DNA of 64,000 nt from an uncultured delta proteobacterium (lineage in GTDB: Bacteria; Desulfobacterota; Syntrophobacteria; Syntrophobacterales; Syntrophobacteraceae), in contig CAWEHK010000038.1 in assembly GCA_963808625.1 (NCBI GenBank), positions 24,825 to 88,824 of the forward strand, in the 5' to 3' direction. The position numbers were made by a program, and so were the translations under genes. Under the pieces are notes generated by a model that had not been told where the DNA came from, did not search any database, and saw nothing but the letters and a program-made list of their open reading frames with translations. Position 1 is the first letter of the stretch; each line of letters begins with the position of its first letter. Positions 784-49,039 of this stretch are shown piece by piece.

Positions 784-1766
784 GATCGCTCTCCCGCCTT
801 CGCCACTCTTTTAACCTCCATAAGGTACGATTCGATTCCTGCGGTGATTCCTTTTACCAGGTCCTGCTGAAATTGTCTGTCGTTCAAACGGCACTCGTCG
901 TTCGGATTGGTGATAAAGGCGGTCTCGATCAGCACGCCGGGCATTTCCGCTCCCAGCAATACGTGAAAGGGGGCCTGCTTGACGCCCAGATCACGCACTT
1001 TATGGCCTTTTACTTTGAGTTTGGCAACCATGTTCCGCTGCACCTGCCGCGCCAGGGCCGCCGATTCTTTGACCTTGGTGGTGAGCATGAGCTTTTGGAG
1101 CAGAAGCCGGAGATCGCTCAGCGTCTTCTTCGAGGGGGCATTTTCGAGAGCGGCCACGCGGGCGGATTCCTGGTCTTTGGCAAAGTTCAACGAGTAGGTT
1201 TCGATGCCGCTGAGGCTTGGGTCCACATGGGCATTGGCATGGATCGAAAGGAAGAGGTCGGCCCTGGCCGCATTGGCGATCCTCGTGCGTTCATCGAGTG
1301 ACAGGTACTGGTCGCGCGTGCGGGTGAGGATGACCTGGCAGCCGAGTTTGGCTTCGAGATTTTCTTTCAGCGCCCTGGCAATGGTCAGCGTGATGTCCTT
1401 TTCGGCAACCTGATGGCAACTCATCGCGCCCCGGTCTTTGCCCCCATGCCCGGGATCGATGACGATGCGATTGACGCCGAGGGCCAGTTGTTTCGCCAGG
1501 CTGGGGAGCGCGGCGTGCGTGGCTCTTAGCTGTTGGCTCTTGGCTCTTGGCGTAGTGGCTCGGTGACCGGGGTGGCAGGGTTGCTGGCTGTTAGCTCTTG
1601 GCTGTTGGCTCTTGGCTGTTGGCGTAGTGGTGGCGGTGACCGGGGTGGTAGGGGGCTGGTTTGCCGGGGCGGCAGCGGCGAGCGGCGAGGAGATCGCGAG
1701 GTTCATCAATAACAGGAGCAGCAGATAGAAAAAGCGATGGCCAAGAGGGCTGGGACACTTGGGCAA
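780..1766 (-). CDS. N-acetylmuramoyl-L-alanine amidase (Amidase_3, AmiA/AmiC-like)
   Basis: Motifs IVIDPGHGGKD, EKDITL, LFLSIHAN, GVLIETAFITN. Hydrophobic signal-like stretch FFYLLLLLLMNL. Start uncertain: TTG 1766 chosen, while the ORF is open to 1901 through REP sequences. Confidence 0.9.
   Translation of the reverse strand: MPKCPSPLGHRFFYLLLLLLMNLAISSPLAAAAPANQPPTTPVTATTTPTAKSQQPRANSQQPCHPGHRATTPRAKSQQLRATHAALPSLAKQLALGVNRIVIDPGHGGKDRGAMSCHQVAEKDITLTIARALKENLEAKLGCQVILTRTRDQYLSLDERTRIANAARADLFLSIHANAHVDPSLSGIETYSLNFAKDQESARVAALENAPSKKTLSDLRLLLQKLMLTTKVKESAALARQVQRNMVAKLKVKGHKVRDLGVKQAPFHVLLGAEMPGVLIETAFITNPNDECRLNDRQFQQDLVKGITAGIESYLMEVKRVAKAGERS
1520..1653 (-). repeat. In-frame heptamer arrays (CAGCCAA/GAGCCAA/CAGCTAA) alternating with a duplicated ~34-bp unit inside the amidase linker
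   Basis: Near-identical copies at 1547-1580 and 1619-1653. Heptamer runs at 1520-1546 and 1581-1618 encode AKSQQPRANSQQP. Confidence 0.8.
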
Positions 1767-5031: not shown

Positions 5032-5094
5032 TTGATGGTTGATGGTGGATAGTTGATGGTTGATAGTTGATGGTTGATAGTTGATGGTTGATGG
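5032..5094 (-). repeat. Nine-unit heptamer array (CCATCAA/CTATCAA on the minus strand)
   Basis: Nine TTGATGG/TTGATAG-type units on the plus strand (one is TGGATAG). Confidence 0.95.
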
Positions 5095-5259
5095 GGATGT
5101 TGATCGGTGACTGGTTATGAGCTCCAAGCCATGAATGGAGGGGATTAACAGTCTTTCCTTTCGGGAATGGTATATATTGCCCTGGGGTTCGACTCCAAAA
5201 GGCCGAGACCAAGCATCGAAAACCAACAGCCACGAACCATGAACCATGAGCCATTTTGT

Positions 5260-5315
5260 CCATCAACCATCAACCATCAACCATCAACCATCAACTATCA
5301 ACCATCAACCATCAA
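5260..5315 (+). repeat. Eight-unit heptamer array (CCATCAA/CTATCAA) just upstream of the uvrA RBS
   Basis: CCATCAA x5, CTATCAA, CCATCAA x2. A short CCATGAA-type run precedes it at about 5230-5254. Confidence 0.95.
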
Positions 5316-5338
5316 CATCTCTAAAAGGAGCCAATCGT

Positions 5339-43149: not shown

Positions 43150-45417
43150 AGACAGCGATCCTTTTGACGGCGAGTCTAGCCGTGGTGGTTTGCTTAGCGC
43201 AGGCCGCGGCTGCAGACCGCAAGGCCGGCGGCGCGCCAAAAGCGGGGCAAGAGCAGGGCTATGCCGGCTCACAGAGCTGCCGGGAATGCCACGAAAAATT
43301 CTACCAACTCTGGTCCACCTCCAAGCATGGGCTGGCGATGCAGCCTTACACGGCCGAATTTGCCGCGACGCAGCTCAGCCTTCAGCAAAAGGAGGTGGTC
43401 ATCGGCAAAGCTCGCTACCGCGCCGAGGTTGGCAAAGGGCAGGGCTGGGTGTCCGAGGTTGGCCCCGGTGGTAAGAAGAAATACCCCATCGTCCACGTCC
43501 TCGGAGGGAAGAACGTCTATTATTTTCTGACGCCGTTTGACCGGGGCCGTCTCCAGACCCTGCCCGTGGCTTACGATGTCCACAAGAAGGAATGGTTCGA
43601 CACGGCGGCCAGCGGCATCCGCCATTTCCCGGGAGGGGCTGCGGGCGAGCAGGTCAGCTGGAAGGACCCGGCCTACACCTTCAACACCTCCTGTTATAGC
43701 TGCCACGTGAGCCAGCTCACCTCGAACTATGATCTCAAGACCGACTACGTACCACACCACCTGGGCTGAGCCTGGCATCAACTGCGAGGCTTGCCACGGC
43801 CCTTCGGCGGAACACAACCGGGTCTTCCGGGAAGCCCCCAAGGGGCAGAAGCCCGAAGACATCAAGATCATCAGTTGGAGGAATTTCACCCCCGAGCAGA
43901 AGAACGCTGCCTGCTCGATCTGTCACGCGAAAATGTCCCCGGTCACCGCCACCTTTGCGCCGGGCGATCGTTTCTTCGACCATTTCGACCTGGCGACGCT
44001 GGAGGACCCCGACTTCTACCCTGACGGCCGCGACCTGGGGGAGAACTACACGTACACTTCCTGGCTGATGAGTCCCTGTGCGAAGGCCGGGAAAATCAAC
44101 TGCGTGACCTGCCACACCTCGAGCGGCCGCTACCGGTTCAAAGCCGACGACAAGGCCAACGACGCGTGCCTGCCGTGCCACGAGAAGCAGGTGATGGACG
44201 CTCCGGCGCACACTCATCACCAGGAGGGGAGCGCCGGGAACAAGTGCGTTTCCTGCCACATGCCCATGACCTCCTTTGCGCGGATGAACCGGACCGACCA
44301 CTCGATGCTGCCGCCGACGCCCGCAGCGACCATTGCCTACCAGTCGCCCAATGCCTGCAACCTCTGCCACACGGACAAGGATGCGGTCTGGGCCGACAAG
44401 CATGTCCGGGAGTGGCGCTCTCGGGACTACCAGGCGCCGCTGCTCCACCGGGCATCGCTTGTTGACGCCGGGCGCAAACGGGACTGGTCGAAGCTTCCGG
44501 AGATGTTGAGCTATATAACGAGTAGAGACCGCGATGAGGTCTTTGCGACGTCGCTCATCCGCATGGTGCCGGCTTCCGGGGACCCGCGAGTCGTGCCGGT
44601 CCTGCTCGAGGCCATCAAGGACCCCGCGCCTCTCGTGCGTGCGGCCGCCGCCGAAGACCTGCTGAATGTGCCGACGAAAGAAGCCGTTCAGGCCCTTGTC
44701 GAGGCGGCCGGAGATGACTACCGATTGGTGCGCGTTCGGGCTGCTTCATCTCTTGCCGGTCGTCAGGACCTCCCCCTGGATGAGGCTCAGAAGAAAACGG
44801 TTGAAGCAGCAAGAGAGGAGTTCCTGGCTTCGCTCCTTTCCCGCCCGGACCAGTGGGGGTCCTATTATAATCTGGGCAACTACTACCTGAACCGGGGCGA
44901 CTTCAAACAGGCCGTGGCTTCGTATGACACGGCCCTGAAGCTGGAGCCGCGGGCGGTGCTGGCCATGGTGAACGAATCCATCGCCTACGCTCGCCTGGGA
45001 GAAAACCTCAGGGCCAACGATGCCTTGCAGAAGGCATTGACGGTTGCTCCCGACAGCGCGGCGGCGAATTTCAACATGGGACTCCTGAAGGCGGAGCAAA
45101 AGGACCTCAAACAGGCAGAGGTCTATCTCAGAGCGGCGCTCAAGACCGACCCCCAGATGGCGCAGGCCGCTTACAACCTCTGCGTCATCACGGCGAAGGA
45201 CCGTCTGGAAGAGGCCCTCGGGTTTTGCCGCAAAGCGAGCGCCCTGCGTCCGGATGATCCGCGCTACGCCTACACTCTTGCCTTTTACCTGAATCAGAAG
45301 GGCGACAGGGACGAAGCCGTGAGCACTCTCCGTGCAATCGTGGAGAAACACCCCACCTACCGGGATGCGCAACTGCTTCTGCAGAAAATATCGAAAACGA
45401 AGGATGCAACACCATAG
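43146..45417 (+). CDS. Octaheme cytochrome c with HEAT and TPR repeats (frameshift near 43745)
   Basis: Signal peptide; eight CxxCH motifs (CRECH, CYSCH, CEACH, CSICH, CVTCH, CLPCH, CVSCH, CNLCH); HEAT repeats DPAPLVRAAAA; TPR YNLGN... Confidence 0.88.
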
Positions 45418-47720
45418 TGGAGCGGGGAAAAAGAAGACTGCTTGGCGGCATACCGGTCATTTGCGCGATCCTTTTCTTGCTGCACCCACTGCTTCCTGAC
45501 GCATGGGCGTCGGAGTCACAGAAGCGGCTCCTCGTGCTTTACAGCCAGGACCACGGGCTTCCGGCCCACGAACTGACGGACAAGGCCATCCGCGCGGCCG
45601 TGAAGGCCAATCCGACCTATGACATCCAGATTTTCTCCGAGTTCCTGGACCTCTCCCGCTTCAGGGGGCCTCACCACGAGGAAAACCTGGGCCGGTTCCT
45701 GGCTGACAAGTATGCGAGCACAAGACCGGACCTCATCGTTGCGGCGGAATATAGAGCGGTGGACTTTATTGTGAATCACGGCGGCCCTGCCTTCTCCGGC
45801 ATCTCCATTGTCGTGGGCAGCATGTTCGAGAGCGAGGCTGAGGAGTTGGAAGGGAGAGGGCTAAGGCAACGGGTCACGGGCGGGATTTTGAAGGAAGACA
45901 TTGGTAGCCTTCTTCCGCTGTTGCGCACGCTGAAACCGGCGACGAGGCGCATCGCCCTCGTGGGGGGCGCATCGGAGACGGACCAGTACTTATATGCTGT
46001 GATCCGCAATGCCCTGAAACGACAGGCTTCCGACCTGGAGATCATCGAACTCGCCGGGCTTGCCCTGCCTCAGCTTCTGGAGCGTGTGGGCAGCCTTCCC
46101 CCCGACAGCGTCGTCCTTTTCATTACGGTTTTCGCCGATGGCGCCGGATGGCAATTCGCCCCCAGAGAGGTTCTTTCAATGGTTTCTCGCGGGACCAATG
46201 TCCCGGTCTTCGGCCTCTTTGACAGCTACCTCGGTTACGGCATCGTCGGCGGCCATCAAATCAGTTTTGAAGCCCAGGGCCGGAAGGCGGCGGAGCTCGC
46301 GTTTCGCATCCTCGGCTGCGAGTCTCCGGGCGCTATCCCTCTAACCGTCGCGGACACCCATCCTTACGCGTTCGACTGGCGTGAACTCAAACGCTGGGGA
46401 ATTCCGGAAGCAGCACTGCCGCCGGGAAGCACCGTGATCAACAAAGAATTTTCCCTTTGGGAGTCCTACCGATGGCCCATTGTCGGCATTCTATCTTTCG
46501 GCTTCAGTCAAACCCTCCTGATCGCCGGACTCATTTTCAATCTGCGCCAACGCCGGCGGGCGGAGCAGGCGGTGGCTTCCTCGGAAGTTCGCTACCGGAC
46601 CGTTGCCGACCACACCTATGACTGGGAGTACTGGTCGGCCCCGGATGGGAGTCTGAATTATGTATCCCCTTCCTGCGAGCGCATTACCGGCTATAGCCCC
46701 CAGGAGTTTTTGGATAACCCCGCTCTTCGCTACGAGATCATCATTCCGGAGGATCGCCGGATCTGGGATCGACATAAAGACGACACCCGGACGGAATTCA
46801 AGGCGCAGGAAATAGGGTTCCGCATCCTCACGCGTGATGGCGAGGTCCGCTGGATTGACCACGCCTGCCGGCCGGTAACGGATCCAAATGGTCAGTTCCA
46901 GGGTTTCCGGGCAAGCAACAGGGATGTGACGGAACGGAATTTAGCCGAAACCAGGGCCCAGCGACACCGGGATGAACTTTCTCATGTCACGCGGGTGGCC
47001 GCCATGGGGGAACTGACCAGTTCTCTTGCCCACGAACTCAATCAACCGTTGGCAGCGATCCTCAATTACGCCAATGCCGCACAGCGTTTCCTTGCCGGTG
47101 CCGAACCCAATTTGAGCAAGGTAAGCGAAGCCCTTCGAGGGATCATCAGGGATGAAAACAGGGCTGCCGAGGTGATCCGCCGAGTTCGGGCTCTATTGAA
47201 AAAGCAGAAACCCCGCCACAGCATTCTGGACATGAACAACGTCATCAAAGAATATCTTGATCTCATGCACGGCGATTCGATTATGAGGGGGTTGTCCATC
47301 GTGACGGAGCTTGCTCCCGGGCTGCCGGCGGTGCGGGGCGACCCGGTCCAGTTGCACCAGGTCCTGCTGAACCTGACATTGAATGCGGCTGCGGCGATGA
47401 GTCATGTTATGCGGGATTTTCCACGGCTGGTTGTCAGGACCGAGGTCCGGGAAGATCAGGGCGTGAAGGTCTCGGTCAGAGACTTTGGCGTGGGCATTGA
47501 CGAAGATCGTAAAGGCAGGCTTTTTGAACCCCTTTACACGACCAAACCCGAAGGGTTGGGGATGGGGCTCGCCATCTGCCAAAATATTATCCATGATCAT
47601 GGGGGCTCGATCTGGGCCGAGAATAATCCCGATCAGGGAGCCACCTTCTGTTTCACCCTGCCGCTAACCCCCGAGAACAGCCACGCAGGGAAGCCGGGTG
47701 TCGGCAAACCGCAGGACTAG
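45417..47720 (+). CDS. Membrane sensor histidine kinase (periplasmic ABC-binding-like domain, PAS, FixL-type kinase)
   Basis: MGELTSSLAHELNQPL, QVLLNLTLNA, DFGVG, TTKPEGLGMGLAIC. Confidence 0.92.
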   Translation: MERGKRRLLGGIPVICAILFLLHPLLPDAWASESQKRLLVLYSQDHGLPAHELTDKAIRAAVKANPTYDIQIFSEFLDLSRFRGPHHEENLGRFLADKYASTRPDLIVAAEYRAVDFIVNHGGPAFSGISIVVGSMFESEAEELEGRGLRQRVTGGILKEDIGSLLPLLRTLKPATRRIALVGGASETDQYLYAVIRNALKRQASDLEIIELAGLALPQLLERVGSLPPDSVVLFITVFADGAGWQFAPREVLSMVSRGTNVPVFGLFDSYLGYGIVGGHQISFEAQGRKAAELAFRILGCESPGAIPLTVADTHPYAFDWRELKRWGIPEAALPPGSTVINKEFSLWESYRWPIVGILSFGFSQTLLIAGLIFNLRQRRRAEQAVASSEVRYRTVADHTYDWEYWSAPDGSLNYVSPSCERITGYSPQEFLDNPALRYEIIIPEDRRIWDRHKDDTRTEFKAQEIGFRILTRDGEVRWIDHACRPVTDPNGQFQGFRASNRDVTERNLAETRAQRHRDELSHVTRVAAMGELTSSLAHELNQPLAAILNYANAAQRFLAGAEPNLSKVSEALRGIIRDENRAAEVIRRVRALLKKQKPRHSILDMNNVIKEYLDLMHGDSIMRGLSIVTELAPGLPAVRGDPVQLHQVLLNLTLNAAAAMSHVMRDFPRLVVRTEVREDQGVKVSVRDFGVGIDEDRKGRLFEPLYTTKPEGLGMGLAICQNIIHDHGGSIWAENNPDQGATFCFTLPLTPENSHAGKPGVGKPQD

Positions 47721-47737: not shown

Positions 47738-47858
47738 CTGTATTAGACAAACTGACCCGCCGCATGTCCTGAAGCCCTCCATCAACCATCAACTATCAAC
47801 CATCAACCATCAACCCAACTGTATTAGACAAACTGACCCGCCGCATGTCCTGAAGCCC
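47738..47858 (+). repeat. Exact 40-bp direct repeat flanking a 41-bp CCATCAA heptamer array
   Basis: ctgtattagacaaactgacccgccgcatgtcctgaagccc at 47738-47777 and 47819-47858; array at 47778-47818. Confidence 0.95.
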
Positions 47859-48990
47859 AGGCCCAATGGAGATTATATCCGCCAAGGTGTCCGGTGACGT
47901 CGATAAGCTCTCCCAGGAAATATAAGCCGGGCACTTTCTTCGATTCCATGGTTTTGGACGACAGTTCCCTCGTATCGACCCCACCCAGGGTCACTTCGGC
48001 CTTGTTGAAGCCCTCGGTGCCGGCAGGCTGAAGCTGCCAGTCATGGAGAGCGCGGGCAAGGGCAGCGAGCTCTTTCGGGGAGTACTGAGTGAGCGGCCTG
48101 GACCGGCAATAGAGTTCGCACCATATCTTCACAAAACGTCCGGGCAGGAACCGGTCGAGCAAGGTGGTGAGAAGCATCCTGCTGTGATGGTTCTCCATGA
48201 GGATGCCGTGAATGTCGAGTTCGGGAAGAAGATCGACAGCAATCCTGCCGCTTCCGTCCCAGTAGGATGAGATTTGAAGAATGGCCGGGCCGCTGAGTCC
48301 TTTGTGGGTAAAGAGGACATTGTCCCGAAACTTCACTCCCCCATGACTCACCACCGAATCCATGGAAACGCCGGCCATGGGGCGAAAGATCGCCTGTTCC
48401 TCGGCACTGAACCTGAGCGGCGTGAGGGCGGGTCTGAGCGCAGTGACTCCTATTTCGAATTGTTTGGCCAGGGCATATCCGAAATGAGTTGCACCCATGT
48501 TGGGCATGGACAGGCCGCCGGTGGCAACGACGAGCGAATCGGCATCAAAGATGCCGCGGTTGGTTGTCACCCTGAATCCTGCATTCTTTCGTATTTCCGA
48601 AACCCTGCAATTCAGCAGGATTCTTACCCTTGCCCTGTCGCACTCCCCCTTGAGCATGTCGATGATTTCCCGGGAGCTCCCACAACAGAACAGGCGGCCT
48701 GCCTCGCGCTCATCGTAGCGGATTCCATGTTTTTCCAGCATGGCGAGGAACGCCGTCGGAGTGAACCGAGACAATGCAGATTGGCAGAAATGCGGGTTAA
48801 GGGACAGGTAATTTTCCCGGCGGACGTTCGTGTTGCTAAAATTGCACTGACCTCCCCCGGAGATGCGGACCTTGCCGCATATTCTTTCGGTATGTTCGAG
48901 GACCACCACCGCCCGGCCCCGCTTCCCCGCCTCCATCGCGCACATGAGCCCCGAGGCGCCGGCCCCGATTACGATAACATCTGTCTTCAT
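47824..48990 (-). CDS. HI0933/BaiN-family NAD(P)/FAD-dependent oxidoreductase
   Basis: VIVIGAGASGL, KVRISGGGQCNFSN, ATGGLSMP, LFTHKGLSGP, VTLGGV, GHLGGYNLHWAWASG. Confidence 0.93.
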   Translation of the reverse strand: MKTDVIVIGAGASGLMCAMEAGKRGRAVVVLEHTERICGKVRISGGGQCNFSNTNVRRENYLSLNPHFCQSALSRFTPTAFLAMLEKHGIRYDEREAGRLFCCGSSREIIDMLKGECDRARVRILLNCRVSEIRKNAGFRVTTNRGIFDADSLVVATGGLSMPNMGATHFGYALAKQFEIGVTALRPALTPLRFSAEEQAIFRPMAGVSMDSVVSHGGVKFRDNVLFTHKGLSGPAILQISSYWDGSGRIAVDLLPELDIHGILMENHHSRMLLTTLLDRFLPGRFVKIWCELYCRSRPLTQYSPKELAALARALHDWQLQPAGTEGFNKAEVTLGGVDTRELSSKTMESKKVPGLYFLGELIDVTGHLGGYNLHWAWASGHAAGQFV

Positions 48991-49039
48991 CGATGGTCCT
49001 GAAAGATACGCTCGATTCACTGCGCAGGAAACGCCGGGC

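Follow-up and report, generated by a model that had tools for sequence, protein, structure and literature searches.

The window, that is, the whole stretch of 64,000 nucleotides analysed here (G000:C38:24825-88824), belongs to a 4.8-Mb draft genome of 54 contigs whose assembly is 84.6% complete. On its forward strand, an open reading frame at 45417..47720 encodes a histidine kinase in which Pfam recognises PAS, HisKA and HATPase domains. Convergent to it, an open reading frame on the reverse strand (47824..49020) encodes a HI0933-like flavoprotein (PF03486 with 291.5 bits, and PF22780). A repeat search of the window finds an exact direct repeat of 40 nt at the meeting point of the two genes: positions 47738-47777 are identical to 47819-47858, with 81 bp from start to start, and chance is ruled out as its source. 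The left copy, X1 (47738..47777), starts 18 nt past the stop codon of the kinase (47720) and directly continues the sequence that lies downstream of the kinase gene, a gene that is itself untouched; X1 carries a spare end of the flavoprotein gene. The right copy, X2 (47819..47858), is continuous with the flavoprotein gene and contains its stop codon (47824-47826) and its final 35 nt. The gene is whole and its 3' end has been preserved by the duplication; the PF03486 match of the protein reaches residue 396 of 398.

Between the two copies lie 41 bp (47778..47818, forward strand) that consist of a T, two CCATCAA units, one CTATCAA, two further CCATCAA, a CC and a terminal CAA. Tandem Repeats Finder (TRF) reports this filler as a period-7 array at 47779-47815 with 5.3 copies and the consensus CCATCAA. 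No CCATCAA-like seed can be read in the 40-mer itself. Each outer flank is continuous with one copy of the repeat, and this is the pattern that is given by an insertion with a 40-bp target duplication; judged from the sequence, the block has been inserted and its long target site duplicated. The first-pass annotation had already described the identical flanks, the gene end within them and the heptamer filler, and the repeat search, the open reading frames and TRF confirm all three. It also pointed to the same unit elsewhere in the window, and TRF finds it there as an inverted pair at 5032..5316 (TTGATGG at 5032-5094, CCATCAA at 5260-5316). The two arms of this pair enclose 165 bp, without a flank duplication and without a four-helix-bundle gene, and its arrays are of the cassette-arm type; the pair looks like an orphan cassette.

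Other arrays of the genome contain the 37-nt core of the focal insert with 100% identity, and stretches of 20, 25 and 30 nt that include its ends, with the T or the CCCAA edge, have no second occurrence in the assembly. For the focal insert and 12 other composite inserts, a donor with matching array edges is absent from the 84.6%-complete assembly. Array-like contigs are very abundant in wetland metagenomes, where their summed depths run into the thousands, and a foreign donor is therefore possible. A repeat search found no inverted ends in the focal insert, inspection of the sequence revealed no microhomology at its junctions, and neither a terminator-like nor a promoter-like site was found at the site, the DNA fold of which is no better than that of shuffled sequences (z = 0.54). 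A reverse transcriptase (RT) gene or a TIGR02436 gene is not present beside it; the eight TIGR02436 genes of the genome sit on other contigs. A transposon or MITE was considered and rejected, given the lack of terminal inverted repeats, the 40-bp duplication and the mutually unrelated inserts at sister sites. A microsatellite born by slippage was likewise rejected: X holds no CCATCAA-like seed and the empty sister sites described below hold no unit at all, in agreement with the initial view that simple slippage is insufficient.

Contigs from five wetland, sediment and peat metagenome runs were compared with the focal site. One contig of 184 nt spans the array-to-X2 part (47779-47855) with 2 differences; its sequence left of the array is unlike the focal site. 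We regard this contig as uninformative because contigs that run through a common repeat can be chimeric. The left copy was covered by no contig of the five runs, and the empty allele was found in none of them, nor in exact-pattern scans of metagenome contigs. The locus has no syntenic relative, the genomes G007 and G001 not being syntenic there; G001 has a single homologous HI0933-like gene end.

Heptamer tandem repeats that are dispersed over a genome are known from cyanobacteria as STRR. The present genome resembles such cases in having hundreds of intergenic 7-nt arrays that fall into few unit families. Further dispersed heptamers in bacteria are the heptameric repeats of PMC4692102 and the TAACTGA repeats of Beggiatoaceae (PMC4679880); unlike here, long flank duplications are not described for the published arrays in the abstracts of these two papers. 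TRF lists 451 period-7 arrays in the genome (429 once merged), which make up 0.56% of it, and CCATCAA is the commonest unit. When the two 120-bp flanks of each array were compared, an exact flank-to-flank repeat of at least 12 nt was the longest match at 26 of 428 arrays, as against 8 of 1287 random sites. Gapped local alignment with an abutting-flank criterion (Smith-Waterman score of 13.5 or more, gaps of up to 16 and 30) found 26 of 428 arrays with flank repeats against 4 of 2145 random placements, and the objection that no other array of the genome has a flanking duplication thus does not hold. Three of the 26 (C39:71973, C33:141229 and C48:31845) were dropped, the apparent flank being itself a dispersed element. 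Among the 23 retained arrays, CCATCAA accounts for 13 (13/64) and all other units together for 10 (10/365). The scar-flanked arrays have a median length of 43 versus 54 for the others, a difference that is not significant (p = 0.22). In the best heptamer events, the duplications measure 40, 35, 36, 38, 35, 37, 33 and 34 bp and the periods are 65-84; heptamer inserts are spread widely in length (28-93 bp). An appeal to slippage in steps of 7 would fit any insert length and hence explains nothing, being unfalsifiable.

Seven flanked heptamer loci were searched in five congeners and then aligned, and at six of the seven the relatives have one flank copy and no array. At C8:251467, each of G001, G002, G006 and G007 has one copy of the 35-nt flank without an array. 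The same state is found at C44:18672 in G007, at C36:37858 in G007 and G002, at C46:4852 in G002 and at C10:51097 in G002 and G007, the far flank of the last locus not aligning. C31:47132 resembles the focal site in that a gene end is concerned, and a single such end is present in four relatives. The locus outside the six is C3:12370. A single flank copy without an array in the relatives means that the flanked arrays are insertions with long target duplications, as had been proposed for the focal site, and because the sites of the relatives are empty, unequal crossing-over at an old array is excluded for these loci. The empty allele that the first-pass annotation proposed to look for in relatives was found at these six sister loci and not at the focal locus. 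In a side observation, an element of about 225-240 bp (G000:C3:12640-12880) beside one scar has matches in ten contigs of G007 and resembles a palindromic MITE in that several of these contigs are matched on both strands.

The annotation had further suggested looking for genes that are recurrently flanked by heptamer arrays. This description applies to six of the eight TIGR02436 genes, which are placed between two arrays (contigs C17, C29, C37, C39 and C50); it does not extend to the duplication, since an outer flank repeat is absent around the paired arrays, one iterated locus excepted. In same-unit inverted array pairs the G/T-rich arm comes first in 11 of 13 cases. We take the design of these four-helix-bundle cassettes with inverted heptamer arms to be that of 23S rRNA intervening sequences. 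The cassettes share the unit families of the focal array. Unlike them, the focal array is solitary, has no gene or partner arm and is flanked by a duplication. It was therefore rejected as an arm of a TIGR02436 cassette, no second array or four-helix-bundle gene being near 47738-47858, and the duplication was equally rejected as the remnant of a decayed gene cassette, given the paired arrays that lack a flank repeat.

An unbiased scan for direct repeats of two copies around a spacer, run at offsets of 40-160 and seeded on 20 matches in 22, yielded 66 clean repeats, ten with heptamer spacers and 56 without. The start-to-start distance d is 69-77 bp in 24 of the 56 non-heptamer events, with about 4 expected under an even spread. 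In the eleven well-bounded non-heptamer events, the duplication measures 32-45 bp (36-40 in 8 of 11) and the insert 29-40 bp, the individual pairs of duplication and insert being 37/39, 38/34, 40/33, 38/37, 37/36, 39/36, 36/39, 36/38, 37/33, 32/40 and 45/29. The process is consequently not specific for heptamers, because the same duplication geometry surrounds unique non-heptamer inserts. Nine unique inserts were searched for and have no other occurrence in the assembly, as would be expected of foreign spacers; exact scans of viral contigs for their origin gave no match. Where an event lies within a long open frame, its period is a multiple of three (72, 72, 72 and 75). One non-heptamer event, C25:111987, has no ortholog among the relatives, and another, C51:12404 (d = 75), is common to this genome and to G001, in which no Cas1 was found, while G002 lacks the second copy only; the latter state is a misfit for simple insertion.

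A further candidate lies in the window itself, where TRF reports a 72-bp-period repeat at 1522..1659 with 1.9 copies that contains TGGCTCT heptamers (event C38:26346). With X of 37, an insert of 35 and d of 72, it is located inside a spanning open frame of 1140 nt and may be a scar of the same class as the focal one or a plain tandem duplication. Two loci are iterated. The structure X-array-X-array-X is present at C48:20735-20935, 8 kb from the cas genes, and C40:25690-25900 comprises three units of 65-72 bp with the same 36-nt insert in each. This insert (C40:25740-25900), which was later amplified to three units, is composed of 22 nt of array and 14 nt of unique sequence and thus fits a cut-out fragment, not a repeat-adding enzyme. 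A hairpin element with sharp ends, AACGGAGGGCGGGTTTTCCAACCCGCC (about 28 nt), is also dispersed over the genome in dozens of copies on many contigs (for example G000:C43:133801-133830 and C31:25657-25685). This element forms the insert of three events (72-bp scars), and two independent events end at the identical base in its loop, between ...GGGCGGGTTTTC(C)AAC and CCGCC.

In this genome, a CRISPR array at G000:C48:64-1330 comprises 18 repeats, each 37 nt long, and 17 spacers, which measure 31-40 nt with a median of 35; its period is 68-77. A repeat of 36-37 nt with spacers of about 35 nt is a common CRISPR geometry. Ten kilobases from the array, cas1, cas2 and cas4 adjoin the type I-B genes cas8b, cas7, cas5, cas3' and cas3''. 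The single cas1 of the assembly encodes a full-length protein of 346 aa (TIGR00287, 272.8 bits), and cas2 and cas4 are of full length, too. The genes cas5b and cas7 (Csh2), at G000:C48:5900-7600, both change frame part-way (profile positions 128-160 and 163-214); the genes may truly be decayed, or the assembly may be at fault. From G000:C48:1365, about 35 nt past the last CRISPR repeat, a long poly-G run hides a possible leader; it looks like a sequencing or assembly artefact. None of the 17 spacers on the contig is derived from a heptamer array, and the CRISPR array runs off the contig end. Compared with the native repeat of 37 nt, the focal duplication of 40 is 3 nt longer and was counted as agreeing in size, and the focal insert of 41 is just outside the native spacer range of 31-40. 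The inserts of 10 of the 11 well-bounded non-heptamer events are within this range. Inspection of the duplicated targets revealed no convincing likeness to the native repeat or its flank.

We know of no transposase that makes duplications of about 37 bp. Cas1-Cas2 duplicates the CRISPR repeat, about 23-47 bp, by design at each spacer insertion and is to our knowledge the one integrase with such a duplication. The match of the scar sizes to the native repeat and spacer sizes, together with the intact cas1, cas2 and cas4, leads us to the reading that the focal structure was probably made by off-target integration of a CCATCAA array fragment by the Cas1-Cas2(-Cas4) machinery of the organism's own type I-B system; that Cas1-Cas2 was the catalyst we infer solely from the size and shape of the scars. 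In this reaction, Cas1-Cas2 would attack the 3' end of the HI0933-like gene on both strands, at points offset by about 37-40 bp, and would join a spacer-sized array fragment there. Gap filling would then double the stretch between the attack sites and leave a complete gene 3' end and a spare copy downstream of it. The focal array may since have slipped by one unit, from 34 to 41 bp. Array DNA would have to be over-represented among the captured fragments: heptamer arrays provide about a quarter to half of the scars despite their 0.56% share of the genome, and this excess speaks against Cas1-Cas2 integration, as do the focal duplication and insert, both slightly larger than the native values, the wide range of heptamer insert lengths and several events with d of about 72 that are short exact repeats (20-29 nt) without extension.

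The distribution of the scars among relatives was also considered. G001, the congener without a detected Cas1, has 1 event in the d band of 69-77 in 1.2 Mb, versus about 5.6 per Mb in the present genome. In G006, where several cas1 genes are found, there are 0 events with d of 69-77 in 0.8 Mb, and Cas1 alone is therefore no predictor of scars; from both counts the scars appear to be a feature of this lineage and not of Cas1 carriers in general. CRISPR arrays near cas1 in seven relatives have repeats of 35-37 nt (35 in G005:C7) and periods of 69-80. The exact (CCATCAA)4 word occurs, among the matches listed, in Bacteroidota, cyanobacteria, Acidobacteriota, Syntrophobacteraceae and others. None of 98 CCATCAA arrays of other species (80 loci) has a flank repeat, even at a looser cut-off, and in G007 none of about 20 arrays has a duplication of about 37 bp, one having a 14-bp flank repeat. 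With about 94% of the arrays here and 98 of 98 elsewhere free of a scar, such insertion is not the main way in which heptamer arrays spread, and the suggestion of a general mechanism for the spread of 7-nt repeats, which the array-flanked TIGR02436 cassettes without flank duplication also contradict, has to be given up.

Several other origins of the focal structure have been weighed against Cas1-Cas2 integration. Template switching, by fork stalling or by microhomology-mediated break-induced replication, would copy an array from elsewhere and re-prime upstream; it yields the order X-insert-X, can fetch repeats from other places and accommodates C51:12404, with just the second copy missing from one relative, better than insertion does. 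We nevertheless consider it unlikely, since neither the duplication length nor the period would be fixed under it, in contrast to the 9-bp band that holds 24 of 56 events, and since it would require templates that the assembly does not hold for the unique inserts, would lead one to look for microhomology that is not visible at the focal junctions and would not stay confined to one genome of the genus. Equally unlikely in our view is an unrecognised integrase or transposase of this lineage, other than Cas1, that makes cuts staggered by about 37 bp and puts short pieces of DNA between them. Geometry alone names no enzyme, the scars are specific to this genome, and G006 has cas1 genes without scars, all of which is compatible with such an enzyme; the agreement of the insert sizes with the native spacers and the intact cas1-cas2-cas4 set of the assembly favour Cas1-Cas2 instead. 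The first-pass annotation had proposed that a 3' end was extended with heptamers, by an RT or primase-like enzyme or by copying in trans, and re-annealed upstream. The re-annealing point would here be about 40 nt away, further synthesis from it would double the flank, and a telomerase-like activity could take the place of the RT. The seedless flank, an array core identical to other arrays and a genome that carries reverse transcriptases and eight TIGR02436 genes are what this model would expect. It does not account for unique inserts within duplications of the same size, which a repeat-adding enzyme would not make, nor for duplication lengths that cluster near 37 without scatter and scar sizes that match the native CRISPR. 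The half-unique insert at C40, the array-gene cassettes without a flank repeat, the 0 of 98 arrays in other species and the lack of an RT or TIGR02436 gene by the focal site speak against it as well, and we rate it slightly lower than the two preceding alternatives.

Two further origins appear very improbable, and to a similar degree. A false loop of the assembler through a repeated array could give rise to identical copies in a metagenome-assembled genome, and the 54-contig draft has at least one suspicious poly-G run. Both junctions, however, need unique words that must exist in reads, a contig of an independent run spans the array-to-X2 part (47779-47855, 2 differences), the whole structure, at 121 bp, would fit within a usual read, and sister loci with diverged copies and empty sites in relatives are beyond an assembler's invention. 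The second origin, unequal crossing-over or a tandem duplication in an array that was already there, finds some backing in the iterated loci C48:20735-20935 and C40:25740-25900, where, however, the iteration can have followed a first insertion; a tandem duplication of X plus array would give two arrays and not one, and X stands without an array in the relatives at six loci.

Target-primed reverse transcription, as performed by non-LTR retroelements, produces long target duplications of widely varying length; what is inserted is a copy of the element RNA, and the element has to encode an RT and an endonuclease. The long target duplications are common to that process and the present scars, and its other features are not seen here. 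A closer parallel to off-target Cas1-Cas2 integration is offered by Nivala, Shipman and Church, who in 2018 reportedly described non-canonical spacer integration by Cas1-Cas2 that led to neo-CRISPR units in E. coli. As in those units, host DNA of repeat length is doubled around an insert of spacer length outside of the CRISPR array, and iterated units can arise. Unlike in that study, the events described here are natural, they number dozens in one wild type I-B genome and several are in frame within genes; moreover, the focal insert is a heptamer tandem array and not foreign unique DNA, and the role of Cas1-Cas2 is a presumed one. Off-target integration of Cas1-Cas2 at non-CRISPR sites has been described in vitro, on plasmids, for Pyrococcus furiosus in PMC6698737, according to which integration is specified by repeat sequences and by how they are spaced relative to each other, and the off-target sites have sequence features in common with CRISPR repeats. 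Off-target integration in E. coli is also reported in PMC6698737 and in bioRxiv 10.1101/148544, and the latter mentions circumstantial evidence of it in two further species. The sites of P. furiosus are likewise non-CRISPR ones; the likeness of the targets to repeats that PMC6698737 describes was not found, by inspection, in the duplicated targets here.

Beyond the focal site, we tentatively suggest, and with less confidence than for the focal event itself, that the CRISPR integrase may act as an accidental 'transposase in trans' which seeds heptamer arrays and the GC-rich hairpin element, also in frame inside genes, in a genome in which cas5 and cas7 are read as frameshifted. If this is true, it would provide a concrete route to new loci for a part of the dispersed heptamer repeats: the integrase would plant microsatellite-like arrays at seedless sites, and slippage would evolve them afterwards. 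The genome would then contain a natural record of CRISPR adaptation misfiring at large scale, with dozens of repeat-length duplications, some of which would add 24-25 residues to proteins. It would thereby link the cost of spacer acquisition for the host genome with the origin of 7-nt arrays at new places.
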